Source: an uncultured Thermoplasmata archaeon (GTDB taxonomy: Archaea > Thermoplasmatota > Thermoplasmata > Lutacidiplasmatales > UBA184). From it: a stretch of DNA of 64,000 nucleotides. The notes beneath the pieces were generated by a model. The model worked only from the letters and a program-made list of their open reading frames with translations, was not told the DNA's origin and did no database searches. Location of the stretch: positions 182,347 to 246,346 of the forward strand of contig CAVPSE010000005.1 of assembly GCA_963708255.1 (NCBI GenBank). The letters run 5' to 3'. The position numbers and the translations under genes are program-made. Shown here one piece after another: positions 19,159 to 54,587 of this stretch. Position 1 is the stretch's first letter. Each line of letters starts with the position of its first letter.

Positions 19159-20800
19159 GGCGTCTCCGGCGGAATCCCGGCGAGCGCCGAGAGCGGGGTC
19201 GGGGTGACCGGGGGCCGCTGGGTGATGTACCCCACCTCCGACGGCGGCCGCCCCTCGAGCTGGCTCAGGAGCAGGATGACGTCGGGGAGGCAGTAGCGAC
19301 CCTGGCAAAGGCCGGTCCCTGCGGCCGTGTACCGCTTGATCACTTCGATCCCCCGGTACCCGCGGTGGGACGCTTCCTCGATCTCCTCCAGGAGCACATC
19401 CTCGCACGGACAGAGCACGAGCTTGCCGCGACCCCGGGGCCGGCCGAGCCACTCCCGATAGTAGCCCTCCAGCTCCCCGGGAACGTCGTCCGCGACGCGG
19501 GGGGGCGCTCCGACGGCGCGACCGAGTCCCCGAGGAGCTCCCGGGCGGCCGCCGCCCCGCTGGAAGGGGACCCGGCCGCGTCGACGAATCCGGCGGAGGT
19601 GCCGGCGGCCCACAATCCGGGAACGGTGGTGGCGCATCCCTGGAGCTCCGGATAGTACGCCCCGCCCGTCGAACGCCAGGCCATGCGGGCCCCTGCCTGG
19701 AAGAACAGCTGTGGGTTCGGGAGTCGCCGGTGCGCCAGGACGATCGCGTCCGCCGGGACGATCGTTGGGACACCCCCCCCGCGGGCCGCGAGGCGGACCG
19801 ACCGGACCCGCCCGCCGCCATGGGCGCCGAGGAGCAAGGTGCGGGGGTAGACGGGCACCCCGAGCCGGGCCGCCCGCTCCGCGACGAGGCCGTGGACCGC
19901 GCCCGGGGCGACCACCGCCTCGACGCGCTCCCCCCACGTGTCGAGAAGCGTTGCGACCCGGGGGCTTCCCCCGACGAGAACGGCGTGGCGGAACGGCGGA
20001 GCGCCCTCGGGGGCGGAGATCGCGAGCGCGCCGTCCGCCGTGAGAACGCCGGGGCGATCGTTGCCAGGGAACATCAGCGGGCCATCGTACCCGCCCGTGA
20101 CCACGAGAACGCGCTTCGCGGAGATGGAGATCCCGACCGTACCGTCCCGCACCGCCAGGGCGCGGAACGGCCGGTCCGGGTCGGGGCGGCCGGGGAGGAA
20201 CGACAGCTCCGTTCCCCCGAGCCACGGGACCCCGGCGACCTTTGGGAGTCCGGGGAATCGTTCGACGACCGTAGGCACGATCCCTCGATCGAGCAGGATG
20301 CGTGCGGCGTCAGAGCCGCTCCGCCCGCCCCCGACGATCAGGACGTCCGTCTCGATCCGCTCCCCGGGCGTAGGGGGAGGGGCCGGCGTGTCCGGGACAC
20401 GACCGTAACCGGCCAGGCGCCGGACGACGCGCTGGTAGAGGGGGGTGAACGCCCGGGGACGCCGGAACCCGTGGGACGTGTCGAGACCGCGGGGGAAGAG
20501 GTGGTCGAGCAGGCCCATCATGTCCCACCGGGGGGATGGCCACGCGTTCTCGGTCCGGATCGCGTCCCCCGGGGAGGGGACGTACCGGCACCCGCGGACA
20601 TTAGGGACGCCGTTCACCCGCACGAGGCAGCCGGTACACTGTCCCGTCCCGCAGAACGGGGCCCGCGGCCGGTGGTATCGGATGGACCGCTGGAGGACCG
20701 GGATCTCCCGGTGCGAGAGGGCCTGGACGAGCGTTTCCCCGGGCGCGGACGCCAGCGGGCGCCCGTCAAAGCGGGCCTCCCGCGGCCTTTCGCTCGCCAT
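19155..20800 (-). CDS. SoxA/HcnAB-like alpha subunit: N-terminal 2Fe-2S domain fused to an FAD/NAD pyridine-nucleotide oxidoreductase with a BFD-like [2Fe-2S] domain; frameshifted between about 19450 and 19700
   Basis: CGTGQCTGCLVRVNG (2Fe-2S). DVLIVGGGRSGSDAARILLDRG (dinucleotide fold). BFD-like LCPCEDV...EVIKRYTAAGTGLCQGRYC in ORF 19155..20225. Confidence 0.6.
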
Positions 20801-20913
20801 GCAGAACGACCGGACGGCACCGGGCGGGCGGCTATTTAGGTCGGTCGGGCCGGCCGTCGGTGGAACCGGTTCCGGAGGGTAGAAGCGACGTGGCGAGGCG
20901 TCGTGCAGGGTAC

Positions 20914-20920
20914 CTATATA
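20914..20920 (+). promoter_or_regulatory. TATA-like box (ctatata) about 30 nt upstream of the AbrB-PhoU paralog 1 start; likely a leaderless or short-leader transcript
   Basis: An AT-rich hexamer in otherwise roughly 70% GC DNA, at the archaeal promoter distance from the ATG at 20950. Confidence 0.4.
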
Positions 20921-20949
20921 GTGTAGGGAGAGGTCCCCAACCCATCCCC

Positions 20950-22026
20950 ATGCGGACCGCCGGCGGATTTCACGGACGACGCATCCAGAAGACCGGCGGC
21001 TCGACGTTCATCATCTCTCTCCCCAAGAGCTGGGTGACAGGCCGGGGCCTTCGCCCGGGGGATGTCCTGTTCTTCGCCCCCCGGTCGGACGGGTCTCTCA
21101 CGGTCTACCCCGAGGAGGGCAGCCGCACGGAAGACCTCCGCCGGACCGTCGAGGTCTCCAACGAGATGGAGGAGGACCACCTCTTCCGCCGGCTGGTGGC
21201 GGAGTACATCGCCGGCGCCCCGCTGCTGGAGGTCCGGACCCCCGGGCGGATGAACGCCCGCACCCGGGACGTGGTCCGGAGCTTCACGCAACGGATGATC
21301 GGCCCCGAGATCCTCGAGGAGACCGCGGACGCGGTGGTCCTCCAGGACGTGGTCGGCTCGAACCCTCTGCCGATCCCGTCGGTCATCCGACGGATGCACC
21401 AGATGGTCCGCGCGATGCAGTCCGACGCCATGGCGGCGTTCCGGGCCCAGGACGGCTCCATCGCCAAGGATGTGGTCGAGCGGGACTGGGAGGTGGACCG
21501 GTTGCACTGGTTCGTCCAGAAGCAGGTCACGACCGCCCTCCGGGACGCCCGGACCCTGGCCTCCCTCGGGCTCACCCTTCCGGAGTGCGCCACCTACCTG
21601 CTCGCCTCCCGGGTCCTCGAGCGGATCGCCGACCACGCGGTCCGGATCGCGGAGACGGTCCAGATCCTCGACAACGAGAAGCTTCCGGCCGGGCTCGTCG
21701 ACTCCCTCGACCGGCTGGCGGCCTCGGCCGCCCAGACCCTGAGCGATGCGGTGGACGCCCTGGAGACGAAGGACATCGACCGCGCGAACAAGGTCGTCGA
21801 CGACGCGAAGCGAGTGGTGAAGGAGAGGGAGAAGATCCTTCGCGAGCTCGCCACGAAGCGGGGCCGGATGGCCGTCGGCCTCGCCTACGTTCTGGAGAGC
21901 CTCGAGCGGAGCGCATCGTACGCGAGCGACCTCGCCGAGATCGCGATCAACCACGCGGTCTCCAACCGGGCCGAACCGCCCATGGCACCCGTGCCGACCG
22001 GCAAGGCGGCCAAGGCCGCGGCCTAG
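20950..22026 (+). CDS. AbrB/SpoVT-domain plus PhoU-domain regulator (archaeal PhoU-like phosphate-signalling regulator), paralog 1
   Basis: N-terminal swapped-hairpin RIQKTGGSTFIISLPKSWVTGRGLRPGDVL, followed by two PhoU-like helical repeats (…RVLERIADHAVRIAE…, …ESLERSASYASDLAEIA…). Confidence 0.75.
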   Translation: MRTAGGFHGRRIQKTGGSTFIISLPKSWVTGRGLRPGDVLFFAPRSDGSLTVYPEEGSRTEDLRRTVEVSNEMEEDHLFRRLVAEYIAGAPLLEVRTPGRMNARTRDVVRSFTQRMIGPEILEETADAVVLQDVVGSNPLPIPSVIRRMHQMVRAMQSDAMAAFRAQDGSIAKDVVERDWEVDRLHWFVQKQVTTALRDARTLASLGLTLPECATYLLASRVLERIADHAVRIAETVQILDNEKLPAGLVDSLDRLAASAAQTLSDAVDALETKDIDRANKVVDDAKRVVKEREKILRELATKRGRMAVGLAYVLESLERSASYASDLAEIAINHAVSNRAEPPMAPVPTGKAAKAAA

Positions 22027-23174
22027 AAATCCACCGGGCTCCCGGCCGCGGCGGCGCGAAGGAGAAGCCCTGCCTCCGCGGCGGAGGGGACCCGCGGGTT
22101 CGACGTGATCCCTGACATCCGAAGCGCGCGTGCGACGACCACGTCGAGCTTCCCCTCCAGCGAGGAGGTCGGGATGCCCGCGTCCCGCAGGGTCTTCGGG
22201 AGCCCCGCGGCCTCGGTGGCCGAGCGGAGCGCCCCGGAGAGGGCGTACCGGTTCTGGACCAGCGCCACGCCCAGGGTCGGTCCGAGCGCGGCGTACCGGT
22301 CCCGGGCCGAGGGGAAGTTGAACTCGACGACCGGGGGGAGCAACGGGGCCGCGAGGCGGGCGTGAGGGACGGCGAACTCCGTCGACAGGGCGTGGGCGAG
22401 CGCGTGGGTGAGACCCACCTGGGCGTTCGATGCGGCGATCCCGGCCTGGGTCGACGCGTAGAGCAACGACTCTCGGAGATCGTCATCGGGCTTCCGACCG
22501 AGACGGGTAAGTCCGGGTACGCCGACCGAGAGGGCGGCGCGGGCGTGGGCGTCCGAGAAGGGGTTCGCCCACTCCGAGACCGCGGCCTCCAGGGCGTGGG
22601 AGATGGCATCGGCGGTGGTCTCCGCGGCGACCCTCGCGGGGAGGCTCGTCAGGAACGATGGGTCCACGATCGCCCAGTCCGGCACCAGCTCCCGGGAGGC
22701 GACCTCGAGGAACCCCCCGTCGTCGCCGTGCAGGTGAGCGACCCAGCTTCCCTCGCTCCCGCTCCCGTGCGTGGTGGGGACCGCCGCGAACCGGCTTCGC
22801 TCTCGGAGGGAGAGAGAGGTGAGGGGGGTGATCGACTCCCACGCGAGGTCGGGGTGCGACCCCCGGATCCAGAGCGCCTTGGCCGTATCGATGGTGCTCC
22901 CCCCTCCGATCGCGACGATCCAATCGGGCGTCGAGGAGCGGGCCGCCGGCACGAGCGCCTCCACGGTCCGGACCGTGGGCTCTCCAGGAGGGATCGTCAA
23001 CACCTCGACCGAACCGTCCATCTTCCGCAGCTCCTCGACCGCGCGGACCCCGGCCGGGGTGGGGGCGACCCCAGGGTCGAGGATCGCCAACGTCCGTCGC
23101 GCGTCGAGCGCGCTCAGCTGCTGGACGGCCCCGGGACCGAGGGCGATCCGCGGGGTGGTGAAGAATCCGAGCAT
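22023..23174 (-). CDS. Iron-containing alcohol dehydrogenase family (Fe-ADH / glycerol dehydrogenase-like) oxidoreductase
   Basis: DWIVAIGGGSTIDTAKA nucleotide-binding motif. 383 aa. The overall Fe-ADH architecture also covers archaeal G1P dehydrogenase relatives. Confidence 0.7.
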   Translation of the reverse strand: MLGFFTTPRIALGPGAVQQLSALDARRTLAILDPGVAPTPAGVRAVEELRKMDGSVEVLTIPPGEPTVRTVEALVPAARSSTPDWIVAIGGGSTIDTAKALWIRGSHPDLAWESITPLTSLSLRERSRFAAVPTTHGSGSEGSWVAHLHGDDGGFLEVASRELVPDWAIVDPSFLTSLPARVAAETTADAISHALEAAVSEWANPFSDAHARAALSVGVPGLTRLGRKPDDDLRESLLYASTQAGIAASNAQVGLTHALAHALSTEFAVPHARLAAPLLPPVVEFNFPSARDRYAALGPTLGVALVQNRYALSGALRSATEAAGLPKTLRDAGIPTSSLEGKLDVVVARALRMSGITSNPRVPSAAEAGLLLRAAAAGSPVDF

Positions 23175-23193
23175 CGGTCCCCCGGCGATGGGT

Positions 23194-23584
23194 CTACTCG
23201 GGGGCCGCGGGACCCTGCCGGCAGCGCGGGCAGGCCCCGGTCAGAGAGAACGCTACCAGGTCCACCGACCACCCGTCCGGCGCGGACCGGGAGATCGCCT
23301 CGAGCCGAAGCTCCTCGTCGGTCTCCAAGGCGAGGGCCGCGATCCGCCCGCAGTTCCGGCAGACGATGTGCGCGTGGGGCCTCTCCGCCAACAGCGGACG
23401 AGGGCCGTCCGAGCGGACCGGACGGGCCGGTTCCCGCGGGGGGACCGGCTTCGCCCGGCGCCGGGGACGCGGTGGGAGGGTCTTTCGCGACCGACGTGGG
23501 GAGGGCACGTCGTCTCCGACGGAGCCCCCGTATTTGAGATGGCGGCGGGCGCCCCCGAACGTAAGCGAACGGTGAAATTCCATC
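23194..23584 (-). CDS. Fur-family C-terminal (metal-binding/dimerisation) domain ORF; the N-terminal wHTH is not recognisable (truncated or frameshifted)
   Basis: HAHIVCRNCGRI (HxHxxCxxCG) and GACPRCR (CxxC) at the C-terminus of the frame in ORF 23194..24351. The preceding 60 aa are R/P-rich and low-complexity. Confidence 0.35.
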
Positions 23585-23610: not shown

Positions 23611-23940
23611 ATGGCGGTCCGACCCGTTCGGCTGGACCTCGTGATGGCCGAGTGGTGTCCGCACTGCTATCCATTGTCCACCGAGCAGGCGAAGCTGCTC
23701 GCCAAGGATCTCGATGTACCCCTTCGGGTCCTCGACATCGATCAGCGTGAGCAGGAGCTGGTGGCGGATGATCTCGTCCGACGGTACGGCGACTGGACCG
23801 AGGACTACCTGATCCCCCAGGTGTTCCTTACCCTCGACGACGGCCGGGTCGTGCACCTCCTGACGGGGACGCCGGGCAGCGTCGCGGCCACGGGGCGCTC
23901 CTGGGAGCGGGTCCGGGCCGAGCTCGCTCGCCCGGCCTGA
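23611..23940 (+). CDS. Thioredoxin-fold / glutaredoxin-like small redox protein (CPHC active site)
   Basis: MAVRPVRLDLVMAEWCPHCY... (109 aa). A ggaggga SD-like stretch lies 4 nt upstream of the ATG. The C-terminal part of ORF 22771..23940 is the only part that is not antisense to the ADH. Confidence 0.6.
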   Translation: MAVRPVRLDLVMAEWCPHCYPLSTEQAKLLAKDLDVPLRVLDIDQREQELVADDLVRRYGDWTEDYLIPQVFLTLDDGRVVHLLTGTPGSVAATGRSWERVRAELARPA

Positions 23941-23949
23941 TCGGTCCGG

Positions 23950-25133
23950 GACGCTAGGCGGACGGCGCCGCGGCGGGGATCGGTGGCCCGGACGGGGCGG
24001 GGGGCTCGGACCGGCGCGTCGCCCCGGATCCGTTCGATCCGGGCGGCGATCGCCCGGTCGAGCCCGACCTGGGCGATGTCCTGGGCGTACGCCGCCGTGC
24101 GGTCGATGGACTGGAGAACCAGCCCCAGGGACGCGGAGGCGAGGGGGGAGAGCTCCGGGGCACCGTCGCGGACCAGGAAGCTCTCGGTGAGCGTCGCGTG
24201 GGCGGCCAGGAGCGCTTCGCCCGTATCGATGAGGTCGTTGGCCCGGTCCACCTCCGGGTGCTCGGTCACCTCGAACGCGCTCGCCAGGTACTCCACGGCC
24301 TGTCGGTGGTAGGCCCTCAGGGCGGCGGTCACGGCCTCCGGCACCGGGCACTCGGCGAGGCGGGCCGCGTTCTCACCAAGGATGACCGCGTGGTCCCCGA
24401 CCCGCTCCAGGGCCCGGGCGAGCAGCAGAGGAGAGAGCGGGTCGTGCCGGGGGGCCGGTTCCCCCTCCCCGAGGTGGTGTGGGTCGAGGCGGAGCACGAG
24501 CGTCCGCTCCACGAGCCAGGCCTGGCGATCCACCTCGTCGTCCCGCTGGGCGAGGCTCCCGAGATCGGCGTGCTGGCGGAGGTCCAGGAACCCGCCGGCG
24601 GTCGTCTGCATCTCATGGACGAGCTGGAACATCCGGCGGAGCAGGAGGGGTGGGGCCAGGTCGGGTCCCGCGGTGATGTCCCGGAGGACGAGCACCTCGC
24701 CTTCGTCGCTCACGACCTCCGGCTGGACCGCCCGGCGTCCGAACATGCGGGCGATGCTACGGGTCTCGGCCGTGATCCCGCCGGGTTCCAGCAGGACGAC
24801 GTCCGTGGCGCCGCCGAGGTACGCGGCCACGAGCTGGCGGAACAGGTGCTCGGGCGGGGTGTTCGGCGGGACCGCTATCGTGCAGGTGTCCCGGTCGGCC
24901 TCGGCCAAGGGGGCCCGGACCAGCAGCGCCCCGTCCTGCAGGGTCTTCAGTTCCACAGGGCTTCCCGGCGCCAGGCCGCGTTCACCGACCCAGGACTTGG
25001 GGAGCACAACGCCCACCGTCACCGAGCCCATTCGCTGGAGGCGCCGCGGCGTGTTCGTCGATCCGTCGGCCCCGCGATCGGGGGCCGGGCGCCGCCCCGA
25101 GGCGGCCGTTCCCTTCTTTCCCTTCGTTGTCAT
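23950..25133 (-). CDS. AbrB/SpoVT-domain plus PhoU-domain regulator, paralog 2 (the C-terminal tail of the listed ORF is probably out of frame)
   Basis: MGSVTVGVVLPKSWVGERGLAPGSPVEL (AbrB-like) followed by PhoU-like repeats (ARALERVGDHAVILGE, QSIDRTAAYAQDIAQ). The last roughly 60 aa of ORF 23805..25133 are R-rich junk. Confidence 0.65.
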
Positions 25134-25157
25134 CGGAGGGAAGATGTCCGAGGACGG

Positions 25158-25165
25158 ATATATAG
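25158..25165 (-). promoter_or_regulatory. TATA box (tatatat) about 25 nt upstream of the paralog 2 start (leaderless mRNA); flanked by a direct repeat ATAGACT x2
   Basis: An AT-rich island ggatatatagcgattggatttagaatATAGACTtagcaATAGACTatagg inside GC-rich DNA, immediately 5' of the ATG at 25133. Confidence 0.45.
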
Positions 25166-25229
25166 CGATTGGATTTAGAATATAGACTTAGCAATAGACT
25201 ATAGGTTACACGTGCCCGCCAGCCCGGGC

Positions 25230-26060
25230 TCACTCGACCTTGAGGTAGCGGCTCGCGACGAGGGTCCCTCCGACGAGCATCACCGCGGCGAACACGGCGA
25301 GGTAGCCGAGGTAGGCCCAATCGGCGACGCCGTTGACGAGGATCCCGCGTCCGAACAGCGCCGAGTAGCCGACGGGGTTCCAGTTGGCGATGTCCTGCAT
25401 CCAAGTCGGATAGTTCGCGGAGGGGAACAGCGCCCCGCTCGCGAACATCAGTGGCATGGTGATGAAGTTCGAGATGACGCCGGGGGTCTGCCAATCGGTG
25501 CTGGAGGCCGTCACGGCGAGGAAGAACGCCGAGAAACCGATGCCCAGGAACAGAGGCCGAGGATCCAGTCCGACCCACATCAGCGGGTCCCCCTCGAAGC
25601 GGACCCCGAAGACGTACGCCGCGGCGACCATGACGGGGATCTGGACCAACCCCCGGGTCGCGGAGCCGAGCGCCTTGGTGAGGTAGACGGTCGCCTTGCT
25701 CGTCGGGGTCAGCAGGATGCGCTTCATGAAACCGAACCGCTTGTCCTGGATCGTGCTCATGGAGCCGAACATCCCGATGGAGAGCATCGAGGTGCTCAGG
25801 ACCCCGGGCAGTAGGAACTGGAGGTAGCCCGTCCCGGGGGGCGCGTGGAGCAGCTGCGTCCAGCTAGGCGACCGGGACGTTGGCGAAGCTGCTCCCGAAG
25901 AAGGCGAGCCACATGAACGGCTGGACCAGGGTGATGACCAGGACCCAGGGGTTCCGGAACGTCTTCGACGACCTCGCGGGCGTAGAGGCCGATAGAACTG
26001 GCTCCCCTGGGCGACCCAGTCGCCGTGCCCGGTGCTCGGAGCGGTAGCGGGCAGCGCCAC
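25230..26060 (-). CDS. ABC-2 type exporter permease (the N-terminal part of the listed ORF is out of frame)
   Basis: C-terminal 200 aa have the ABC-2 membrane pattern (LQFLLPGVLSTSMLSIGMFGSMSTIQDKRFGFMKRILLTPTSK...). The first 60 aa of the ORF are R/S junk. Confidence 0.6.
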   Translation of the reverse strand: MALPATAPSTGHGDWVAQGSQFYRPLRPRGRRRRSGTPGSWSSPWSSRSCGSPSSGAASPTSRSPSWTQLLHAPPGTGYLQFLLPGVLSTSMLSIGMFGSMSTIQDKRFGFMKRILLTPTSKATVYLTKALGSATRGLVQIPVMVAAAYVFGVRFEGDPLMWVGLDPRPLFLGIGFSAFFLAVTASSTDWQTPGVISNFITMPLMFASGALFPSANYPTWMQDIANWNPVGYSALFGRGILVNGVADWAYLGYLAVFAAVMLVGGTLVASRYLKVE

Positions 26061-26089
26061 GATTCGGTCGTCCGGGTGCTCATTGTCGC

Positions 26090-27075
26090 GCCCTCCGCAC
26101 GTTCATGTAGAACTTCCGGAAATCGTGGACGTCGCTCGCCGGCCTGGTCGATCTGCTTGCCGGTCATGTCCATGAAGACCGATTCCAGGCTCGGCTTCTC
26201 GACGTTCAGGCGGCGGATCCGGTCGGTCCCTGACCAGCTGGAACAGCTGCGGGAGGACCTCCTCGGCAGCTGCTCACCTTGAGGATCCAGGCCTTTCCCT
26301 GGCTCCGGACCTCGAGACCCCGGGGATCGCCCGGAGCAACGCCTCGTCGATCCCGTCGGCGAGGTCTCGAGCTCGATGAAGTCGGCCTTCACCCGGGACT
26401 TGAGCTCGCCGGGGGAGCCCGTGGCGATGAACTTGCCCGTGGTCGATGATCGAGATCTGGTCGCAGAGGGCGTCGGCCTCCTCGATGTAGTGGGAGGTGA
26501 GCAGGACCGTGACGCCGAACTCCCTGTTGACGCCGGTGATGAGCTCCCAGAGCATCCGTCGGGTGCTCGCATCGAGGCCGATCGTCGGCTCGTCCATGAA
26601 GATCACCTCGGGCTGGTGGAGGAGCGCGAGCGCGATCTCGAGCTTCTTGCGCATCCCGGTGGAGTAGCGCCGAGACCTTGTCGTCCTTCCGGTCGCGTGA
26701 GGTCGAAGTACTGGAGGAGCTCCGTCGCCCGTGTCCTTCCAGTCGGACAGCCGCTGGAGCTTCGCCTGGAGCCAGAGGTTCTCCCACCCGGAGAAGTCGT
26801 CGTCGAGGATCACCTCGGCCGCCACCCAGCCGATCGTTCTCCTTGACGTGCATCGGCTCCGTCCGGACGTCGTACCCCGCGACCGAGGCGTCCCCCGCCG
26901 TGATGTCGCTGAGCCCCGTGAGGAGCTTGATGATGGTCGTCTTCCCGGCGCCGTTGGGGCCGAGGAGCCCGAAGACGCCCCCGACCCGGACGTCCATGTC
27001 CACGTGGTCGACCGCCAGGAGCTTGCCGTACGCTTTGGTGAGGCCGACCGCGCGGATCGCGCTCCCGTCGGTCAC
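26090..27075 (-). CDS. ABC transporter ATP-binding protein (DrrA-like), split across three overlapping ORFs by frameshifts
   Basis: Walker A GLLGPNGAGKTTIIKLL in ORF 26389..27075. Signature and Walker B regions ...KKLEIALALLHQPEVIFMDEPTIGLDA...VLLTSH in ORF 26274..26825. C-terminal ...IATGSPGELKSRVKADFIELE in ORF 25796..26572. Confidence 0.65.
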
Positions 27076-27599
27076 GGGCCCCGCCTGCCCCGCCGCGTGC
27101 GACGCAGCTTCTCCAGCCCCCGCGTCAGCTCGGCCACCGCGTCCGAGCGGAGGTGTCGCCCCTCCGCCGCGTCCGTGGTGGCGCGCTGCAAGTGGAGGGT
27201 TAGGCCATCGATGGACGTTCTCAATCGCACCAGCAGGAAGGCGCCGGGGTCCCCCGCCCCCATGACCTCAGCCCACAGGGCCGTCAGGTCCGGGGTCCCC
27301 GGCCGGGCTGGGGCAGACCGGGCCCGGAGGCGGGCAAGGAGCTGCCTTCCCGGCTCGGTGATAGTGTAGTCCTGGCGACGGCCACGCCGGGTCCGGCGGG
27401 CGAGGTCGCGGCGCACTAAGCGCTGGAGCGCCGGGTACACCGCCCCCGGCCCCGGGCGCCAGGCACCGTCCGTCCTCTCCTCGATGCGTTCGGCGAGCCG
27501 ATAGCCGTAGATCGGTCCTTCGCGCTCCATCAGAGCGAGGGCGTACAGCGTGAGGGCCCCCCGGGCCCTTTCGCCGCTCCGGGGGGGGTTGGGGACCAT
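27072..27599 (-). CDS. PadR-family transcriptional regulator, first gene of a PadR-ABC2 operon
   Basis: LYALALMEREGPIYGYRLAERIEERTDGAWRPGPGAVYPALQRLVRRDL is the PadR wHTH. The start is the internal Met MVPNPPRS of ORF 27072..28286. An AT-rich patch (taaaata) lies about 30 nt upstream. Confidence 0.75.
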   Translation of the reverse strand: MVPNPPRSGERARGALTLYALALMEREGPIYGYRLAERIEERTDGAWRPGPGAVYPALQRLVRRDLARRTRRGRRQDYTITEPGRQLLARLRARSAPARPGTPDLTALWAEVMGAGDPGAFLLVRLRTSIDGLTLHLQRATTDAAEGRHLRSDAVAELTRGLEKLRRTRRGRRGP

Positions 27600-27891
27600 G
27601 CTACCCCCACCGCGGCAGATAGGTATTTTACTATTACGTATGCGATACATGAGGCCCGGCTCCGGTCGCGAGGATATGGTCCCGCCGGGGGCCGGTGTCG
27701 GGGTCCCAGGCAAACGGACGCCGGATCCCAAAGCACGGGATGGGTCCGACATCACCGCGACGTTCGGGCCAGCTCCTTGGCGGATTCCCTGACGCCCTGG
27801 GGCCTCCTCCCATCCAACGCTGACGCGCGTGGGAGGAGGGGACCCGCAGGGAGGTACGCGGGTCCCGGAACGGGTTGTGGAACAGGATCCC

Positions 27892-30775
27892 TCAGTTCTC
27901 GTTCTGGAACTTAGCGGTCCCTGCCGATCCGCCCTGGGCATTCGTCCCGAACACGCCGACGCTGCCCTTGGAGCCAGTGCCGCCGTTCGTCCCGCTGGCG
28001 GCCCGGTGGGAGCCCGCCCCGTCCGTCCCGCCGAGCCCTCCGCTACCGGCGCTGCCGCCGGAGCCCAGGGCACCGCCGATACCGGGACAGGCCGTGCCCG
28101 CGGCGCAGTTGTTGACGCCACCGTTCCCACCGACGATGCTGTTCGCCCCGAAGGTGAGCCCGGAGACCGAGGTGTGGGACCCGTTGAAGATCGCGCCCCC
28201 TTCGCCCGCCCCGCCGTTCCCTCCGGCGCCCGACCCTCCGCCCGTGCCCCCGGTGCCGCCGGTGCCGCCGGAACCTCCGTTGCCACCGACGGCGCCGGAT
28301 CCTACCGTGGTGCCGGATCCCCCGTTCCCGCCGTTGCCGCCGGTGCCTCCGGTCCCGCCGCTGCCGCCGGTGCCAGCGTTGCCGCCGGCCCCCCCGGACG
28401 CGCCGGCACCGCCGACCGCGGAGTTGTACGTGAAGACGTCGGTGGTGAGGGTGAGCGTTCCGGAGCTGAACCAGGCTCCGCCCTCCGCGGTGCCGCCGAC
28501 GCCGCCGGTCCCGCCGAGGCCGCCGGTGCCACCGTTCGAGGTGTTTCCGCCGAAGCTGCCGGAACCACCGGCCCCGACCGGAGCCTCCCTTCCCTCCGGA
28601 GACCCCGCTGCCCCCCGAGCCGCCCGATGTGCCCGGCGCCCGGACCCGCCGGTGCCGCCCGAGCCGCCACCCCCGCCGTACCCGCCCGTGCTGCCGGCCC
28701 CGCCGGTGGCGATACCGAATTGGAAGGTGGAGGCGCGCGAAGAGGCCGTTCCGCTCGCGTAAACGCCTCCGCCCATCCCGCCCCCTCCGGCGCCCGCAGG
28801 TCCGCCGGCCCCGCCGTTACCGCCCAGGCCGCCCGGCGCCCCGGCCGACGTGGGCTGGCCGCCTGCGCCGCCGGCTCCGCCGTTCTCGGCCGGAGAGTTC
28901 GAGCCACCCGAGCCACCGGACCCTCCGAAACCGCCCTGGCCCGCCGCACCGCCCGTCGACCCGAAGATGCCCGAGCCGCCCGGACCTCCGTACCCCCCCG
29001 TGCCTCCGGTCGCCGTGGCCTCGTAGATCAGTGTGTTGTTGAGCCACAGGTGGACGCCACTCGAGTAGACCGCGCCTCCGGTACCCGCCCCGCCGATGCC
29101 GCCACCGCCCCCCGCGCCCGCGGTCCCGGGAGAGCCGGGCTGAGCGGCAGCCCCGCCCGATGCGCCGCTCGCGCCGGCACCCCCGGTCCCACCCGTCCCC
29201 GTCGTGCTGGGAGCACCGTTGCCGCCCGCGCCGCCGCGACCGCCGGTGTCACCGATGCCGCCGTTCCCGCCGGCGCCGCCCTGTTCGCCGCTGCCGCCGC
29301 TGCCGCCGCTACCACCATACACGTGGTTGTACTCGATCGTGCTGTTGAAGATCGTCACCGTTCCGGGTACCTGTAGATCGCACCGCCTCGGCCGGCGCCG
29401 GCCGCGCCGCCCTTGCCACCAGCGCCGCCGGCCCCGCCGGTCGCGCCGTTGGAACCCGCGGAGGCCGCCCCGCCGGCTCCGCCGCTGCCGCCGTTCCCGC
29501 CCGAGCTCGACGGAGTTCCACCGTTCCCGCCACTACCGGCGAGAGCCGCTCCCCGCGCCGCCGCCGCCGCTCCCGCCGAACCAGCCTGTGCCTCCGGACC
29601 CCCCGGTTCCGCCATAGGCGTAGTTACTTTCGAAGAAGGAGCCGGTGACGTTGAGCTTCCCGGTGTTGAACACCGCGCCGCCCTCGCCCACGCCGCCGCC
29701 CCCGGCGACCCCGCCGTTGCCCGCCGCGCCGCCCGCGGCCGACGCGCCGTTCGTGCCGGATGCGCCGCCGGCGCCGCCCCGAGTGCCGGTGGACGGAGTG
29801 CCGCCCATCGCGCCGGAGCCGCCACCTCCGCCGGCCCCGCCCGCCCCACCGGACCCACCGGTGGCGCCCGCTCCCCCCGTGCCGCCGTCGACTTGGTTGG
29901 ACTCGAAGATGGCGTTGGTGAGGACGAGGGTGCCAGCGTTGTAGATGGCACCGCCCTCGGCGGCGCCCCCGGCTCCCCCACTCCCGCCATTGCCGCCGTT
30001 GCCGCCCGTCGCTCCTGCGCCGCCGGCTCCGCCGGCGCCCCCCGCCGAGCTCGATGGGTTGGTGGGGCTCGCGCCGGTGCCTCCGCTCCCGCCGGCACCC
30101 CCGGCCCCGCCGGCCGCCCCGTTGCCCCCGGTCCCGCCGGTGCCACCGACCGCCTGGTTCGAGTAGAAGTTGTCCGAAACGAGGATCACGGTCCCGCTGG
30201 TGATCTGGATGGCGCCGCCCTGGGCTGTGCCTCCGGCCCCGCCGTTGGTACCAGCGCCTCCGGCGCCGCCGGGCAGTGCCGGTACCGCCCGTGCCTCCGG
30301 CCTGGCCGGTGCCCCCAGTCCCGCTACTGCCCGTCGCCCCATTGGAGCCGGTGCTCCCGGCGGTCCCGGTACCTCCCGTGGTGCCGGCCTTCCCGGCGAC
30401 GTGCCCGCTCTCCAGGGTGATGGAGGTGATATTGAGATGGCCGCCCTTGACGAGGAAGAGCTGGCTGGTCGAGCCGCCGGTGAACGTGATTGAGAAACCG
30501 CCCGACGTGATGTTCACCGTCAGGGTCGAGCCGATGGTGACCGCCGAAGTGAAGGTCATCGTGCAGGCGGCGCCGAACGTGACCGTGCCGCCGAGCGCGA
30601 CGTCGCTCTTGAAGGTGGTAAAGGTGCACGGGGAAATGACCGTCCCGGCCGAGTGCCGGAGAGGTGCCGTGTGGCCGGCCGCGGTCGGCAGGACCGCCAC
30701 GAGCAGGAACACCGTCACGAACGCGATCAGACCCCACAGACCCGGCCGTACCTTGGACACCGACAACTCGAACAC
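27892..30775 (-). CDS. Giant Gly-rich surface protein of about 960 aa with repeated GGA[IVW]-[FY]-N...F-x-x-N motifs (Pmp-like, predicted parallel beta-helix), an N-terminal signal peptide, at least four apparent frame changes inside the repeats
   Basis: Minus-strand fragments 29624..31441 (part), 29533..30342, 29355..30146 and 27892..29358 join in order. Repeats include [79 protein letters not shown] and [26 protein letters not shown]. Signal peptide [29 protein letters not shown] follows a GTG at 30775. The plus-strand Pro-rich ORFs are its antisense. Confidence 0.6.
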
Positions 30776-30810
30776 GAAGACCCCCGGTGGCGCTCGCACC
30801 GAATTTCCGC

Positions 30811-30818
30811 TATAAAGA
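30811..30818 (-). promoter_or_regulatory. Archaeal TATA box (TTTATA on the minus strand) about 35 nt upstream of the giant Gly-rich gene start
   Basis: ccgctataaagatatacg is the only AT-rich patch in this GC-rich stretch. Its spacing to the GTG at 30775 fits a TATA-to-TSS-to-start arrangement with a short leader. Confidence 0.4.
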
Positions 30819-30972
30819 TATACGACATTCCGCGACGGTTCGACGACGCTGATATCGGGCACCGACGTGACCGGGCGTCGCATTCCGCGGGTCCCGTTGC
30901 GCTCAGGACCCCGGGTCGAGAACCGCCTAGCTGTCGGCCACCGGCGGGGTCGATTTCTGGGGTCGGGACGAT

Positions 30973-31441
30973 TCAGCCGGGGGGCGGGCGCCGGCTCGCG
31001 CGGAAGTCCTGCTCGAGGGCCCGCGCCAGGTGGCCCCACATCACCCGGAGCTCTTTTTCGAGGACGGGCTTCGGAGGGTTCCTGACGCCGAGAGCAGTGG
31101 CCCGGCGTTCGCCTCGCATCGTGAACTCGGTACCGACCGTCCGGGAGCTCTCGGAGAGCGTAGTCGAGGACCCAGGTCCGGTAGTTGCCGATCGCCACGG
31201 CATGCCACCGGTCAGGGGGATGCAAGCCTACCGTCTGCCGGCTCCACATCCATCCGTCCGGGGTGTCGTCGAGGTCCTCATAGACAACGGTCCGGGCGGT
31301 GCGACGGAGTATCCTGCGCGTGCCCGTTTCCCCCTCGAGCTCGCGGTCCTTTGGGGTGTAGTCGGTGCACCACTCATACGAGAACGCAAGGGGGGCACGA
31401 AAAACGGTGCGGATCCTGTAGACTCTGACGGGGGACGCCAT
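30973..31441 (-). CDS. Small hypothetical protein (possible START/SRPBCC-like fold), with a frame change near 31100
   Basis: N-terminus MASPVRVYRIRTVFRAPLAFSYEWCTDYTPKDRELEGETGTRRILRRTARTVVYEDLDD... in ORF 29624..31441. Plausible C-terminus ...NPPKPVLEKELRVMWGHLARALEQDF in ORF 30973..31203. Confidence 0.35.
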
Positions 31442-31798
31442 GACCGGAGGTCTCCAGGTGCGTCCAGTCTCGAACGAGGCAAATACCTTGAGGGGCCGAT
31501 CGACGGGGGCGTGCTCCTCGGCGACGCGTCCGAGCCATGAAACGGTTGGGTGCGGGATGATGGACCTGAACCGCCGGGTGGGTCGAGTATCGTCGAACTC
31601 GCCAAGGCCCGACGTGACCTATCGGCTCCCGGACGGTCGAGACTCCATCCCATCGATCCGACAGCTCCCCCTGACTGGGACGGACTCTAGGGACTGGCGA
31701 TCGCTGGGCGGAGCGATCCAGGGCGCGATGAGGGAGCCGAACGCCAGGCACTCAGCGCCCGCTCACAAGGTCAAACGGTGTTTGTGGGTCCGGCACTC

Positions 31799-31991
31799 GT
31801 CGGTGCGCCCGGGGTGGCACAGGATGCGGTAGAGGTTCTGTACGGGCGGAATCTGTCACTGCAGGCTCAGGGCAGAGCCATCGAGAGCAGAGGATCGGAC
31901 GTGTCCGCGAACCACAGGGCCTCGGTCGGGCATGGGCGGATTCGTGCCAGTATTTGGACCCTCTGACCCCGACAAGAAGCGAGTAGAAGAG
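31799..31991 (+). repeat. Conserved noncoding element X, copy 1 (about 190 bp), direct repeat of 53741..53930
   Basis: An alignable block (tcggtgcgcccgg.gtggc.cagga.gcggtagaggttctg...cagggcagagcc.tcga..gcagaggatcggac...ccgcgaaccacagggcctcgg...tatttgga.c.tctg.cc..acaagaagcgagtag). Substitutions are scattered and not biased to third codon positions. No credible ORF. Confidence 0.6.
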
Positions 31992-32310
31992 TCCGGCTCA
32001 CCTGTTCTTGCGGGGCTCCCCCCGTCCCATCCTAGTGGCCTGGGCCGGGGTGGTCCGGCGGGATGTCAGACGACGGCGAGAACGAGATCGTGTCGGTGTC
32101 GCCGGGGCCGGATGCGACAACAGCGAGACCCGACCGGGGTGCTCTAAGAAGGGTGGCACCCGCCCGGAGCGCGAACCCGGACCTGCCACGCCCGATGGCC
32201 GGCGTTCCATCGATTAGGGTCGGGGTAGGGCGAGGGTAGGGCCGGGCACGGGCACGAGTGGGACCTGTTTGTGACCTACCCGTAAATGGAGGCGGGCCGG
32301 TCGGGCGCTG

Positions 32311-44096: not shown

Positions 44097-46191
44097 AAGA
44101 TGTTCAGGCGGCGTCGTCTGGCGGGGAGCAGCCTAGAGGCCATCGGGCCGGTCCCGCCGTTCCGTGGCTCGGGATTGTGGGGGTCATGGTGGTCGTGGTG
44201 CTGCTCGCAGCGCCGTCAGTGCCTGTCCCCCCCGTCGGTGCCGGCCCCCTCGCCGTGGCGTCCGCTTCATTGGTCGGCGCCTCGCCCTCTGCTCCTGGGG
44301 GCCATCTGGTCTCGTACAGTTCTAGCGTCGACGGGTGGCCGCTCAGCTACGAGGAGTGGCTTCCGACCGGGTACACCTCCGGGAGTTCGTACCCGCTCGC
44401 CGTCTATCTCCATGGGGAGGTCGGCCAGTCCGGGACCTGGGTCCGCGGCGGAGTCGTCTCCGGGCTGATGGCGACCGCGTGGGGCACCACCTTGATCCAG
44501 GCGGCTCGGTCCCACGGCTTCCTCCTCATCGCACTCAACACCAGGACTGGCGACGGGTTCTACGTCAACAGCCCGTTCACTGGGCCCCAACAGACGGACG
44601 TCCTCGACGCGATCGCCCACGAGGAGGAGATCCGCTCGGTGGCGTCCCTCTACCTGGTCGGCGATAGCATGGGGAGCGTCGGTGCACTTCAGATCGCGGA
44701 CCATCTGCCCGGGGCGTTCGCGGGGATCGGCTCCATCGAGGGGTGCACGGACGTTTTCGAGATGCTGCAGTGGCGGAACACGCAGCACCAATCGGGCCCC
44801 GTCGCCCAGACGCTGCAGTCGAGCGGCGGCCAATGGCCCAACGGCAGTGCGGTCGCGGCCGGCCTGTTCTACTATGAAAGCGCGGCCCGCTTCTTTCCCG
44901 GGAACCTGACGAACCTCCGGCTGTACTATGCAGCCGGCGGGCAAGCACGGTCCTGCCCTTCGAACGCCTCCGTGTACGCCTTTCAGCAGGCGAACAACAC
45001 GATCCTTCGCCCGAGCTGCCTCGTGGCCGCGCGGGTCGCGGAGCCGGCCAATTGCACGGGACCGCTCGCGACGCTGTCGGGTAACGAGCCCGGCAGCTAC
45101 CTCTGGCGGTATGATTACGTGGCCAATGGTACGCACAACGGCTCCATCCTCGATGCCGCCGATATGCTGGCTTTCTGGGCGGGGTCGGTCCCGGGAGGCG
45201 TCGTCTGCGGCCTCCCCGGCGCGACCCCGGTGCCGTGCGCGCGGCCTGGGGTCGCCACCAGCCCATTCACGACCCAGTACTATGACTCCAGCGTCGACGG
45301 GGCGCTCCTCTCGTACTGCGAGTGGCTTCCCTCATCGGTACAGCGCCGCCGAGCGGTACCCTGTCCTTCTCTACCTCCATGGGAAGGGGTATCAAGGGAA
45401 TTCTCTCTACACGGATACCGACGGGGTCACCCTGATCCAGGACGCCCTCGCTGACGGGTTCATCGTCCTATCCTTGAACACCCGAACATCAGGGGGCTTC
45501 TACGTGAACTCCCTCTACACCGGACCGCAGGAGCAGGACGTCCTCGACGCGATCGCGCACGCGAAAACCCTCCGGTCCGTCTCCCAACTGTGGCTCACCG
45601 GAGTGTCGATGGGCACGATGGGCGCCTTCTCACTGGTCGCGCACCACCCCGGCCTGATCCGCGGGATCGGCGTCATCGCATCCTGCTCGGATCTCTATGA
45701 GGTCCAGGCGTACAAGATCGCCACGAACCAGAGCAGTGATTTCGACGACTTCCTCAACACGACCGGCGGCTATCTGGCGAACCAGTCCCTGTCTGCGGCC
45801 GCCGAGACGTACTACCTTTCCTCCTTGCGGTTCTACCCACAGAACTTCTCGCAGGTCCGTATCTACGCCGCGCAGGGCGGTGACGATCTCTCCTGTCCGA
45901 ACAATCCGGCGTTGTGGGGCTACCAGCAGGCGAACAATACGTTCGTCAACTCCACCTGCCTCGTGGCGACCAATCTCTCGGAACCGGCCCAGTGCACCCG
46001 CCCGCTGGCGACCCTGGCGGCCCGAAACCCCGGGAAGTACCAGTTCCGGTACCGTTTACGTCGCGAACGGCACCCACACTTTGGACATCCTGGATCCGGC
46101 CGACATGCTGGCGTACTTCCTCGGTAACGAATCGAACGGGATCTACTTGTCGAGCCCTGGCGGGGTCCCGTATCCATCGGGCCCCGGATAG
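44097..46191 (+). CDS. Secreted protein with two tandem alpha/beta-hydrolase (esterase / PHB-depolymerase-like) domains; frame changes near 45330 and 46050
   Basis: Domain 1: YPLAVYLHGEVGQSG...LYLVGDSMGSVGALQIADHLPG. Domain 2: YPVLLYLHGKGYQGN...LWLTGVSMGTMGAFSLVAHHPG in ORF 44928..46127. The tail ...VYVANGTHTLDILDPADMLAYFLG mirrors ...YDYVANGTHNGSILDAADMLAFWAG of domain 1. Confidence 0.55.
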
Positions 46192-46360
46192 CACTCGCGT
46201 CCGCCCGGGCGGTCACCCCGCTGCCGGCCGGATTCCATCGGCCCTTGATGGAGTCACGCTCCGGGTCGTGCTCCGCGTCGTGCTCGAGGCGCAGGAACGG
46301 GTAGAGGCGGGGAGTGGACTCGCAGGGGGCCATGAACACGTTCCACCCCACGGTCAGGCG

Positions 46361-46427: not shown

Positions 46428-46996
46428 ACGGCCTGGAGCACCTGGGCGGTCGGGAGATCCACCCGGTCAGCCGGCCCTCGCCGCTGTACCCGGAGCTCCC
46501 CCTCACCTGTCACCAGCAGAATGTGCTCATCTCTCGGACCGACATAATGATTCAATCATGAGTGCTGCCGATCGGATGTCCAGCATCCCAGCCCACCAGT
46601 CTACCATTGCGCTTCTCCAGCGGCTAAAGCCCAAATCGAAGAACTGGGACGACTTCCTGCTCTCTTCAGGTCGCCTTCTTGGGCACCTTCCCGACGTTCG
46701 TAAGGCACCCTTGGCGGGCGAGCCCTGAGTTGGATGTGGCGCCTCTGAGGGATATGCCCGAGCGCTGGCGTTGGAAGGTGGCCGGCGGTCACCGAGGATC
46801 TACCGCATCGTCCAGGGTTTGCCAGAATTCGAAATGTTCGAGACGCGCTATCAGGTGTACGCTCGACTCCGTCGCTATCTGGCCGGCAAGCCCTGACTCG
46901 TAAGGAGCCGTTCATTGGCGCCGACGCCATGGGTGTAACCAGAGCGGATCTCAGACAACTAGCCCGCGAGGGCTCGGGCACCTTTCACGGCACTCG

Positions 46997-47070
46997 CAAA
47001 GTAGATGAAAGAGTTCGATGCGGGGAGAGGTATTCGAACCGCCCGGCGGTTCAAACATCGCGGGAGGTGG
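46997..47070 (-). repeat. att-like repeat E (tRNA-Leu 3'-end/trailer copy)
   Basis: caaagtagatgaaagagttcgatgcggggagaggtattcgaaccgcccggcggttcaaacatcgcgggaggtgg. Confidence 0.55.
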
Positions 47071-47244
47071 CCCGCGCCGGAGTTTTCTCGCAGGGCCCCC
47101 CGGGAGATCGTCGTCCTAGGTCGGACCGCTTGGAGTGGGCGGTTCCCAACCAAAACCTGCGCAGTCCGCCTCCACCGAGAGACGGCACCACCATCGTGAA
47201 GAGGGGGGGGTATGCGTATATAGGGAGGGTGTGTATGAATGCAT

Positions 47245-47899: not shown

Positions 47900-48003
47900 C
47901 GCCCTTCGGATCCGAACCTTCTCCCGGCGGCGAAGTTCGCGCCCTGTCCGTGCGGGGGGCCCGCCTCGAGCGTCCTTGGGCTCCTTTCACCTTCCTCGTC
48001 GCG

Positions 48004-48079
48004 CTCAAAGTAAATGAATGGGTTCGATGCGGGGAGAGGGATTCGAACCGCCCGGCGGTTCAAATATCGTGAAGGAAGG
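48004..48079 (-). repeat. att-like repeat F (closest copy of the tRNA-Leu 3'-end/trailer)
   Basis: ctcaaagtaaatgaatgggttcgatgcggggagagggattcgaaccgcccggcggttcaaatatcgtgaaggaagg. The minus strand has ...GGTTCGAATCCCTCTCCCCGCATCGAACCCATTCAT. Confidence 0.6.
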
Positions 48080-48274
48080 CCCATCGAAAGGGTCCGTTGC
48101 GCGGTGTGCCGGGGCGGGCGCAATTGACGGGATCGGGACCCGCGGCCAGGGCGGTCGCGAGAGTCTTTCCCGGTGTACCGCTTAGGGCCTTTCCGGAATA
48201 CGGCAACCAATTCGCTCCTCACGCGCTAGGTGGTCCCAAATCAGCTGTCCGGGGTCCCCCGGTGAAACCGCCGA

Positions 48275-48987: not shown

Positions 48988-49186
48988 TCCGTCCATGTTC
49001 GGATCGGGGCCAGGGTCCGCCAGTGCGGGGCGTGATTCCGGTCCACGGGCTCGATCATTCCGCAGGCGGTGCGGGACGGACGCGATCCGTCTCAGCACGT
49101 TCCACGCCGCGGTCAAAGCATTTGAAATGGTTAGATGCGGGGGGAGGTACTCAAAACGCCGGGCGGGTCAATAATCGTGGGATACG
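48988..49186 (-). repeat. att-like repeat G (long form; shares about 190 bp with repeat A, including upstream gtccgtccatgttc...ggggcgtgat.ccggtcca.gggctcgatc)
   Basis: Core caaagcatttgaaatggttagatgcggggggaggtactcaaaacgccgggcgggtcaataatcgtgg plus an extended upstream block alignable to 34773..34890. Confidence 0.55.
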
Positions 49187-49319
49187 ACACATCTCGACGT
49201 ACCCTGCCCAGGTATCCGTCGTCGCCGGACACGTTGGCGCCGGGAACCTGTCGGGCCCGGGGGTGGGTCCGTCCGTGGTACCGACGATAGGCCCCCCGGG
49301 CCCTCGCCCTGGGAGGATC

Positions 49320-53930: not shown

Positions 53931-54502
53931 TACCGAACCGGTTCGCAGGTGGCGGCGTCACCCTCCTCCACGTCGCTGTCCTTCGTCGTCTTGGGCCCGC
54001 GATAAGTCCGACGATCTCCACGGGAGCCTCCGTTCGCTACACGGCCGACGCGTTCGGTCAACACGGGGGCCCCCGAGGGTCCCCCCGGGCGTCGCAACGT
54101 ATGCTCCCGCGTAAGGTGGCGGGGTCTCTCCACCGGTAGGTTCGTGGCTGCCGCGAGCCCCGGACCCCCCGACGACCGCCGCCGACGGGAATGGGAATCG
54201 GCCCGCCCTCGATCCTGAGTGGCATCTCTCGGGCCGAGCACTCCCGCGACCCAGCCTAACCCCGCCGAGGGAGCCACGTCTCGGCGGAGCGATGCCCCCG
54301 CCCAACCCGTCCCGCCCCGCGGTCACCGGTTCTGCAGTCGGAGCCCGCGTGCAGAGCGCGGAGAGCGAACGCACCTGCCAGGGCCGGGAGGGCTCCCGAC
54401 ACTTGGTGGTCAATGCCGAGGCTGGAAAGGGACCGTAAGACCCGAGGTGTCCGCGGGTCGAACTCGTTCCAAGGGGTTCCCAGCCTAGATGAATGGGTTC
54501 GA

Positions 54503-54587
54503 TGCGGGGAGAGGGATTTGAACCCACGAACTCCTACGAGACCAGACCCTGAATCTGGCGCCTTTGGCCAAGCTGGGCGATCCCCGC
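54503..54587 (-). tRNA. tRNA-Leu (anticodon CAG), class II with long variable arm, no encoded CCA
   Basis: Minus strand GCGGGGA-TC-GCCC...; 7-bp acceptor GCGGGGA/TCCCCGC plus discriminator A; 3-bp D stem; anticodon stem CCAGA/TCTGG with loop TTCAGGG (CAG, G37); about 14-nt variable arm; T arm GTGGG-TTCAAAT-CCCTC. 85 nt. Confidence 0.75.

Follow-up and report, generated by a model that had tools for sequence, protein, structure and literature searches.

The glycine-rich GGA/FxxN repeat protein gene of a Thermoplasmata archaeon and its five frame changes

On the minus strand of contig CAVPSE010000005.1 (assembly GCA_963708255.1) a Gly-rich reading runs from a GTG codon at 30775 to a TGA at 27894-27892, and it can be followed only by way of changes of frame. 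All positions are those of the 64,000-nt stretch that was analysed as a whole (182,347 to 246,346 of the forward strand of the contig), which we call the window. Is this one gene, do its interruptions belong to the organism or to the deposited sequence, and how close is its product to the polymorphic membrane proteins (Pmps) of Chlamydia, to which the initial annotation of this DNA had likened it? The locus is a single gene for a repeat protein, probably secreted, of a Thermoplasmata archaeon. Taking all lines of evidence together, we consider it quite probable that the gene is intact, that its product is an exported protein of the beta-helix type, and that the indels are consensus errors.

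The gene and its product

Correction of five ±1-nt indels turns the minus strand between 30775 and 27892 into one Gly-rich repeat protein gene with a product of ~960 aa (957-962). This reconstruction confirms the earlier call of a ~960-aa minus-strand protein with GGA and FxxN repeats, and the Pro-rich open reading frames (ORFs) on the plus strand (e.g. 27875..28762) are, as had also been suggested, the antisense reading of its GGN codons. Homologues of the protein are found at E values down to 1e-67, from which we conclude that the gene is real. One relative, locus L002 on a SPAdes contig of Thermoplasmata archaeon AcS5-58, has an uninterrupted ORF of 971 aa; the reconstructed window protein is 47% identical to it with hardly any gaps, and the two share the same cap domain and matching core and loop lengths. 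A further homologue, L001, is open for 818 aa, to the end of its contig. The G+C (GC) content of the window is ~70%, climbing to 77-78% across 28-30 kb.

From the N- to the C-terminus the protein consists of a hydrophobic segment, a 97-aa non-repetitive cap domain, and eight cores with Gly-rich segments. The parts of the locus are as follows.

27892..30775, minus strand: whole gene, colinear with the intact relative L002, with loops of 49-70 aa and DNA periods of 9/18/27/36
30811..30816, minus strand: TTTATA box, candidate archaeal TATA element, 35 nt ahead of GTG 30775 and within an AT-rich patch of 14 nt, GTATATCTTTATAG
30674..30775, minus strand: start region and predicted N-terminal signal/anchor segment (translation; AlphaFold2 helix at aa 13-27)
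30371..30661, minus strand: cap domain of 97 aa (C..GGTVTF..C...), family-defining and non-repetitive (predicted local distance difference test, pLDDT, 95-98; homologue searches)
30142..30219, minus strand: core 1 (motif match; beta strands in the AlphaFold2 model)
29878..29955, minus strand: core 2 (motif match)
29605..29682, minus strand: core 3 (motif match)
29302..29387, minus strand: core 4, starting with GGAIY and holding frame change 3 (motif match after correction)
29002..29079, minus strand: core 5, lacking FxxN (motif match)
28696..28773, minus strand: core 6, degenerate (motif match)
28405..28482, minus strand: core 7 (motif match)
28123..28200, minus strand: core 8 (motif match)
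27892..28122, minus strand: C-terminal tail rich in Gly, Ser and Asn, with a CxxxxxC pair, the end ...AKFQNEN and TGA at 27894-27892 (translation)

The eight cores fit the pattern GG[AG][IVW][YFQ]..G.L.L....FxxN.A.GG at aa 187, 275, 366, 465, 568, 670, 767 and 861, giving a core-to-core period of 88-103 aa. The second motif stands 17-18 aa past GGA and is a canonical FxxN in five cores and IxxN in one. The Gly-rich segments, one ahead of core 1 and one behind each core, are 49-70 aa long and 47-59% Gly, with GGX triplets filling up to 17 of 22 positions in one register; at the sequence level each of them follows FxxN (+3-5 aa) and precedes the next GGA. The C-terminal tail is colinear with the C-terminus of L002 (...ARYPDHN), and in it no transmembrane segment, sorting signal, or Pfam or NCBIfam domain match was found.

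Besides the GTG at 30775, candidate starts are TTG 30766 and GTG 30760. The N-terminus carries a charged n-region followed by a hydrophobic stretch, an arrangement that is also present in the relatives. The proposal that the gene encodes one long repeat protein, secreted or at the surface, in which GGA(I/V) and FxxN motifs are paired, is supported, export being predicted from this N-terminus. A TTTATA box some 35 nt ahead of GTG 30775 had also been reported; the spacing is exactly 35 nt, and L002 has a similar box, TTTATG, 40 nt upstream of its own ATG. The TTTATA at 30816-30811 is the sole one in the 64-kb window, where AT-rich boxes are scarce and several of them lie directly upstream of gene starts. 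In an archaeal host such a box can properly be read as a TATA-type promoter, and on sequence grounds its function as the promoter of this gene is plausible.

Origin of the frame changes

The five frame changes, all on the minus strand, are these.

30271, minus strand: frame change 1, +1 (extra base in ACT GCC C GGC), within Gly-rich loop 1; a codon-usage hidden Markov model (HMM) places the switch at 30275
29541, minus strand: frame change 2, +1 (extra base in GGC TCT C GCC GGT), within the Gly-rich loop behind core 3 (translation)
29372-29365, minus strand: frame change 3, one base short in core 4, with 8 nt AGGTACCC in place of 9 between GGAIY and GTVTIF
~28639, minus strand: frame change 4, -1, compensated by frame change 5
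28576, minus strand: frame change 5, +1, an extra C, which compensates frame change 4

All are changes of ±1 nt, three of them uncompensated and two forming a compensating pair. The initial annotation had counted at least four, which agrees with the five found here, and the example it gave at ~29360, after GGAIY, is the 8-nt stretch at 29372-29365. Nine nt are expected at that point because L002 has three residues there (GGSIF-TSR-AATITGTTF). In the segment bounded by frame changes 4 and 5 it is the alternative frame that aligns with L002 GNGGSGGGGGSGSVSAGNGGGGG. G/C runs of at least three bases are present at four of the five sites, and none of the five lies at either of the two 7-nt homopolymers, the longest in the gene.

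Are such changes peculiar to the repeats, inside which they had been said to cluster? In ~48 kb of coding DNA outside the target, ordinary genes carry at least 12 confirmed single-base frameshifts, together with ~6 candidates. These were recognized from Pfam domains split across X-masked frame translations, then with the codon-usage model in Viterbi mode, and then in a second Pfam round; a phase plot of GC content at third codon positions (GC3) was too noisy, and the Viterbi model was used in its stead. It recovered all six of the frameshifts first seen with Pfam (ABC ATPase, KdpA and P-type ATPase), and the second Pfam round confirmed six of the six Viterbi proposals that were tested (ZnuA, ZnuC, ZnuB, the esterase-like gene twice, and the sarcosine-oxidase-alpha-like gene).

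~26440 and ~26840: ABC ATPase gene beside the target, two frameshifts (domain split over three frames, Pfam)
~52480: KdpA gene, one frameshift (profile positions 3-371 and 367-526 in different frames; a run of five G where six are expected)
~42135, ~42310 and ~42840: P-type ATPase gene, three frameshifts (N-terminal, E1-E2, DKTGT and hydrolase parts in different frames)
~36640, ~37550 and ~38050: ZnuA, ZnuC and ZnuB genes, one frameshift each (HMM, then Pfam)
~45340 and ~46050: esterase-like gene, two frameshifts (HMM, then Pfam)
~19515: sarcosine-oxidase-alpha-like gene, one frameshift (HMM, then Pfam)
~2348, 10519, 11476, 14754, 39949 and 61927: further candidates from the codon-usage HMM only

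G/C runs of at least three bases are found at five of the six outside frameshifts that were mapped to the base, and such runs are about as dense in the target (51.7 per kb) as elsewhere (49.5 per kb). With at least 12 equivalent frameshifts in non-repetitive genes and a G/C-run density that is alike in and out of the target, the notion that frame changes gather inside the repeats does not hold. The same HMM detector reports one switch in the 2.9-kb target and ~18 in the ~48 kb of other coding DNA (~0.38 per kb). The esterase-like gene (44300-46200, plus strand) is made of two tandem homologous halves (…YLWRYDYVANGTHNGSILD… and …KYQFRY/VYVANGTHTLDILD…).

Slipped-strand phase variation, by which real and population-heterogeneous indels would switch the surface protein on and off, was one of two possibilities raised in the initial annotation, the other being assembly errors. 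The target resembles the phase-variable surface-protein genes of bacteria (contingency loci) in that a surface-type repeat protein, a class that is often phase-variable in bacteria, has its ORF broken by small indels, and the frame changes are in or beside repeats. Unlike those loci, however, the target has no long homopolymer, its indels lie away from the 7-nt runs, and equivalent indels, at least 12 in number, occur across unrelated, ordinary genes. The tandem periods found with TRF are 3, 6, 9, 12, 18, 27 and 36 nt, plus one weak period-8 row; apart from that row they are divisible by 3, so that slippage of whole units keeps the frame. Three independent uncompensated breaks and a compensated pair are also unlike a switch, and the relatives L002 and L001 are uninterrupted. 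We therefore regard phase variation as very improbable here, and as a lead it should be dropped.

The mixture of signs bears on another thought, namely that the frame is restored on expression, by programmed ribosomal frameshifting or by slippage in transcription. The ORF pieces do abut, as this would require, which is nothing specific. Five events of both signs would be needed (+1 at 30271, 29541 and 28576; -1 at 29368 and 28639), the sites have neither slippery heptamers nor long A/T runs, and a dozen unrelated genes would require the same; such recoding is scarcely credible.

The repeats could also have misled the assembler, so that collapsed or mis-joined copies within the low-complexity GGN array produced out-of-frame junctions. 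The array is 77-78% GC and full of 9/18/27-nt repeats, and most of the relatives in the databases are fragments of 100-300 aa that end just past the cap domain, as if assemblers break here. The number and spacing of cores and loops nevertheless match those of L002 almost residue for residue (957 vs 971 aa, with few gaps), which indicates that nothing in the array is missing or duplicated. Each junction, moreover, is a single-base change, and non-repetitive genes are equally affected. Local misassembly is accordingly a poor candidate, and we think it improbable.

A more serious contender, though an unlikely one, is that the target and the other broken genes are genuine pseudogenes in a lineage that gathers real single-base indels, in which case the protein would no longer be made. 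The frameshifts do stand in the deposited consensus across many genes. The closest homologue, P0001, is encoded on a MEGAHIT short-read contig (L003; ENA ERZ27251255 k141_2881534) and is itself frameshifted once at ~2100, just before its GGAVY core (GAGGAVY; GAGGAVYATGEITIF); past this point the reading continues for ~500 aa more, where a 425-aa gene was called separately. Decay of this kind is at odds with the character of the lesions, all of which are ±1-nt indels, with no nonsense mutations, deletions or rearrangements, in a gene that is colinear and nearly gap-free with respect to its intact relative. The frame-specific codon signal is back immediately past each shift, the bias toward G/C runs is a classic signature of sequencing error, and the transporters equally affected include ones of presumable importance to an acidophile, such as kdp (PMC9287336).

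Residual indel error in the consensus of an indel-prone, long-read-type assembly is thus the most likely cause of the five frame changes, and the organism most likely makes an intact protein. Long-read-type error also fits a contig that crosses the array, since short-read assemblies usually stop in it. Two points weigh against this explanation. The frameshift in L003 stands in a short-read contig, which makes real lesions or repeat-driven misassembly conceivable in the family. Secondly, when all five indels are counted the target has 1.7 per kb as against ~0.3-0.4 per kb detected elsewhere, a comparison that is biased because compensating pairs 60-170 nt apart go undetected in ordinary genes; the Viterbi detector overlooks closely spaced compensating indels and caught only one of the five in the target. 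Local rates of 1-2 frameshifts per kb are also seen at the ABC ATPase, P-type ATPase and znuABC genes. The contig as a whole is to be treated as indel-prone, with about one frameshift per 3-4 kb and many gene calls broken, and the target gene would get annotated as a pseudogene or as fragments.

Comparison with Pmps and predicted structure

In Pmps a variable omega-loop projects from the rung, and at its base FxxN is packed against the GGA(I,V,L) that comes next (PMC10715098). The window protein has repeated GGA(I/V) and FxxN motifs in the same order and with the same spacing, its inserts leave the rung between FxxN and the next GGA, that is, at the omega-loop position, and like Pmps it has predicted beta-strand rungs and belongs among exported or surface proteins. 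The differences are as clear: the host is an archaeon, there is no outer membrane, and there is no barrel. The loops of Pmps are variable and disordered, whereas the window protein has uniform (GGX)n inserts of 50-70 aa at every rung, predicted to be ordered; because these stand between all rungs, one rung takes up ~95 aa, compared with ~27 aa in Pmps.

Profile searches agree with this mixed picture. PF02415, TIGR01376 and other repeat models gave no match at E<=1 in the window protein, in L002 or in 25 other relatives, and full-length Pfam and NCBIfam scans of the window protein returned no domain, including neither an autotransporter barrel nor the Pmp middle region. When the eight cores were concatenated, with the Gly-rich segments cut out, and scanned against Pfam and NCBIfam, they matched Beta_helix PF13229 at E 2e-4 (21.4 bits, below the cutoff of 25.9) and Chlam_PMP PF02415 at E 0.44 (11.4 bits, below the cutoff of 20.6). 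The description as Pmp-like is thus upheld as regards the paired motifs and the omega-loop placement of the inserts, and fails as regards membership in PF02415 or TIGR01376 and the autotransporter barrel.

The initial annotation also thought it unusual to see such motifs so extended in an archaeal-looking genome. Beta-helix proteins with FxxN and GGA have been described outside Chlamydia in Methanobrevibacter, Phycisphaerae and Trichomonas (PMC10715098); given the Methanobrevibacter case the motifs are not new to archaea, and relatives of the window protein occur in several Thermoplasmata metagenome-assembled genomes (MAGs), so that this claim cannot be kept.

Other known families share single features with the protein. 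The right-handed beta-helix repeats of PF13229 (pectate-lyase-like proteins, NosD, rhombotarget A) are those matched by the cores; ordinary members are without long Gly-rich inserts. The choice-of-anchor Q model (NF041518) matches one of 27 family members (3.5e-22), and one relative (P0049) bears that name, but neither the window protein nor L002 matches it at E<=1. The loops recall the mycobacterial PE_PGRS proteins (PMC9436101) in their GGX triplets, their 47-59% Gly, the 9-nt period of the DNA and the very GC-rich gene. Unlike PE_PGRS, which belong to mycobacterial ESX-5, the window protein has no PE domain match, begins with a domain of another kind, lacks a type VII secretion context, and has an archaeal host; and whereas in PE_PGRS and antifreeze proteins the Gly-rich stretch is one continuous sandwich domain, here it forms short modules between beta rungs.

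An AlphaFold2 run with 36 aligned sequences gave a full-length model with pLDDT 69 and a predicted TM-score (pTM) of 0.71, in which the first 400 residues, including Gly-rich loops 1-3, reach 96-98, and loops 4-8 stay below 50. Modelled separately, aa 39-411 reach pLDDT 93.9 and pTM 0.82 with three or four short strands per core; loops 1-3 have a pLDDT of ~98 in this model, and DSSP assigns them neither helix nor strand. The top Foldseek match in the PDB is the springtail antifreeze protein 7jjv with its nine polyproline-II helices (E 4e-5, 30-34% identity), and it is followed by the right-handed beta-helices VexL, rhombotarget A, Jun a 1, chondroitinase B and polygalacturonases. Nearly every one of the weak Foldseek matches is a right-handed beta-helix; no global match was found in the PDB, all TM-scores being below 0.26. 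Foldseek against BFVD gave collagen-like and pectate-lyase-type matches.

These models suggest the following picture. An N-terminal signal or anchor helix would export the ~960-aa protein, in which a cap domain is followed by what appear to be eight beta-helix-type rungs whose paired motifs, of the Pmp type, would build a spine. The (GGX)n inserts are predicted to be ordered as helices of the polyproline/polyglycine-II type and may form an exposed face. That loop lengths are preserved although the protein is only 47% identical to L002 speaks for a structural role of the loops rather than that of a disordered spacer. The export signal, the type of fold, and the fusion of relatives to surface-anchoring or wall-degrading domains make it likely that the protein is a rigid extracellular scaffold or adhesin on the cell surface.

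Going further, one may tentatively suppose a hybrid fold, in which a Pmp-type beta-helix spine has its rungs extended by an ordered polyglycine/polyproline-II bundle that makes a flat Gly-rich wall on one face; the fold would be one not described before. A search of the literature for archaeal hybrids of beta-helix and polyglycine-II found nothing relevant. If the supposition is true, a polyglycine-II sheet of the PGRS/antifreeze type and an adhesin-type beta-helix are combined in archaea, and the Gly-rich face could serve for binding to regular surfaces, for example ice, a mineral, a polysaccharide or the cell's own envelope. The novelty is in any case modest: uniform polyglycine inserts set this unannotated protein apart as a variant among the FxxN/GGA beta-helix proteins.

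Relatives, host and genomic surroundings

How widespread is the family? A scan with the N-terminal region, one genome per species, found two relatives, both in MAGs of Thermoplasmata archaeon, and a search with the N-terminal 140 aa found four partial proteins, recorded under 'Candidatus Lutacidiplasmatales archaeon' and 'Thermoplasmata archaeon'. The cap domain is 42-48% identical to Thermoplasmata MAG loci, and an exhaustive search with it yielded 188 cluster representatives at E<=1e-3. The proteins that contain it are mostly 100-300 aa long, several being marked partial, and full-length members are rare in the databases because short-read assemblies apparently break after the cap domain, in the Gly-rich array. 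In an initial homologue search Gly-rich words were saturating and 8000 candidates were scored; close orthologues and the window's own fragments were not among the proteins returned. In relatives the module is joined to domains of the Ig-like, cadherin-like, SLH, CWB2, dockerin, GH24 lysozyme and VanY types.

The window is archaeal and belongs to Thermoplasmata, and it is probably Lutacidiplasmatales-like. A DeoC-family protein (54647-55462) has a 100% match in the database, and all its named relatives are 'Thermoplasmata archaeon'; as the relatives of the target likewise come from Thermoplasmata or Lutacidiplasmatales MAGs, the initial impression of an archaeal genome was correct. A bacterial origin of the window was considered and rejected. 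Lutacidiplasmatales have ~69% GC and usually possess kdpABC (PMC9287336), and high GC and kdpABC are both present in the window.

Upstream of the target, 30870-32302 is a 1.4-kb stretch with weak codon signal, in which a minus-strand ORF from 31441 (MASPVRVYRIRTVFRAPLAFSYEWCTDYTPKDRELEG…) has no Pfam match and seems to degrade as a reading after ~110 aa. Directly downstream lie genes for a PadR-family regulator (27072-27650, minus strand), an ABC ATPase (26100-27075, minus strand) and an ABC-2 permease (25230-26102, minus strand), which have an AT-rich box of their own at 27623-27629. Beside the homologues in L002 and L003 this arrangement of PadR and ABC transporter genes is not conserved; the gene downstream in L002 is an unrelated one.

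Elsewhere the window carries AbrB-PhoU fusions and an Lrp/AsnC regulator. Two paralogous genes for AbrB/MazE-like and PhoU fusions (20605-22026, plus strand; 23805-25187, minus strand) flank an iron-containing alcohol dehydrogenase gene (22023-23240). A sequence of 70-95 nt occurs in four direct copies (46971-47073, 47980-48082, 49088-49190 and 54455-54524), the fourth of which overlaps the 3′ part of a minus-strand tRNA-Leu(CAG) gene (54503-54587); the third copy and this tRNA gene enclose the kdpABC operon. The 46.2-49.3 kb region has lower GC and little coding signal. The four copies resemble remnants, of the att type, of elements that integrated into tRNA-Leu and possibly carried kdp.

The family is small and unannotated, and long-read contigs like the present one are, once polished, among the few sources of its full-length members. 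If the predicted structure is right, a Pmp-type FxxN/GGA rung can carry large ordered polyglycine inserts, which would be relevant to beta-helix adhesins, to PGRS-type domains and to the cell surfaces of archaea.

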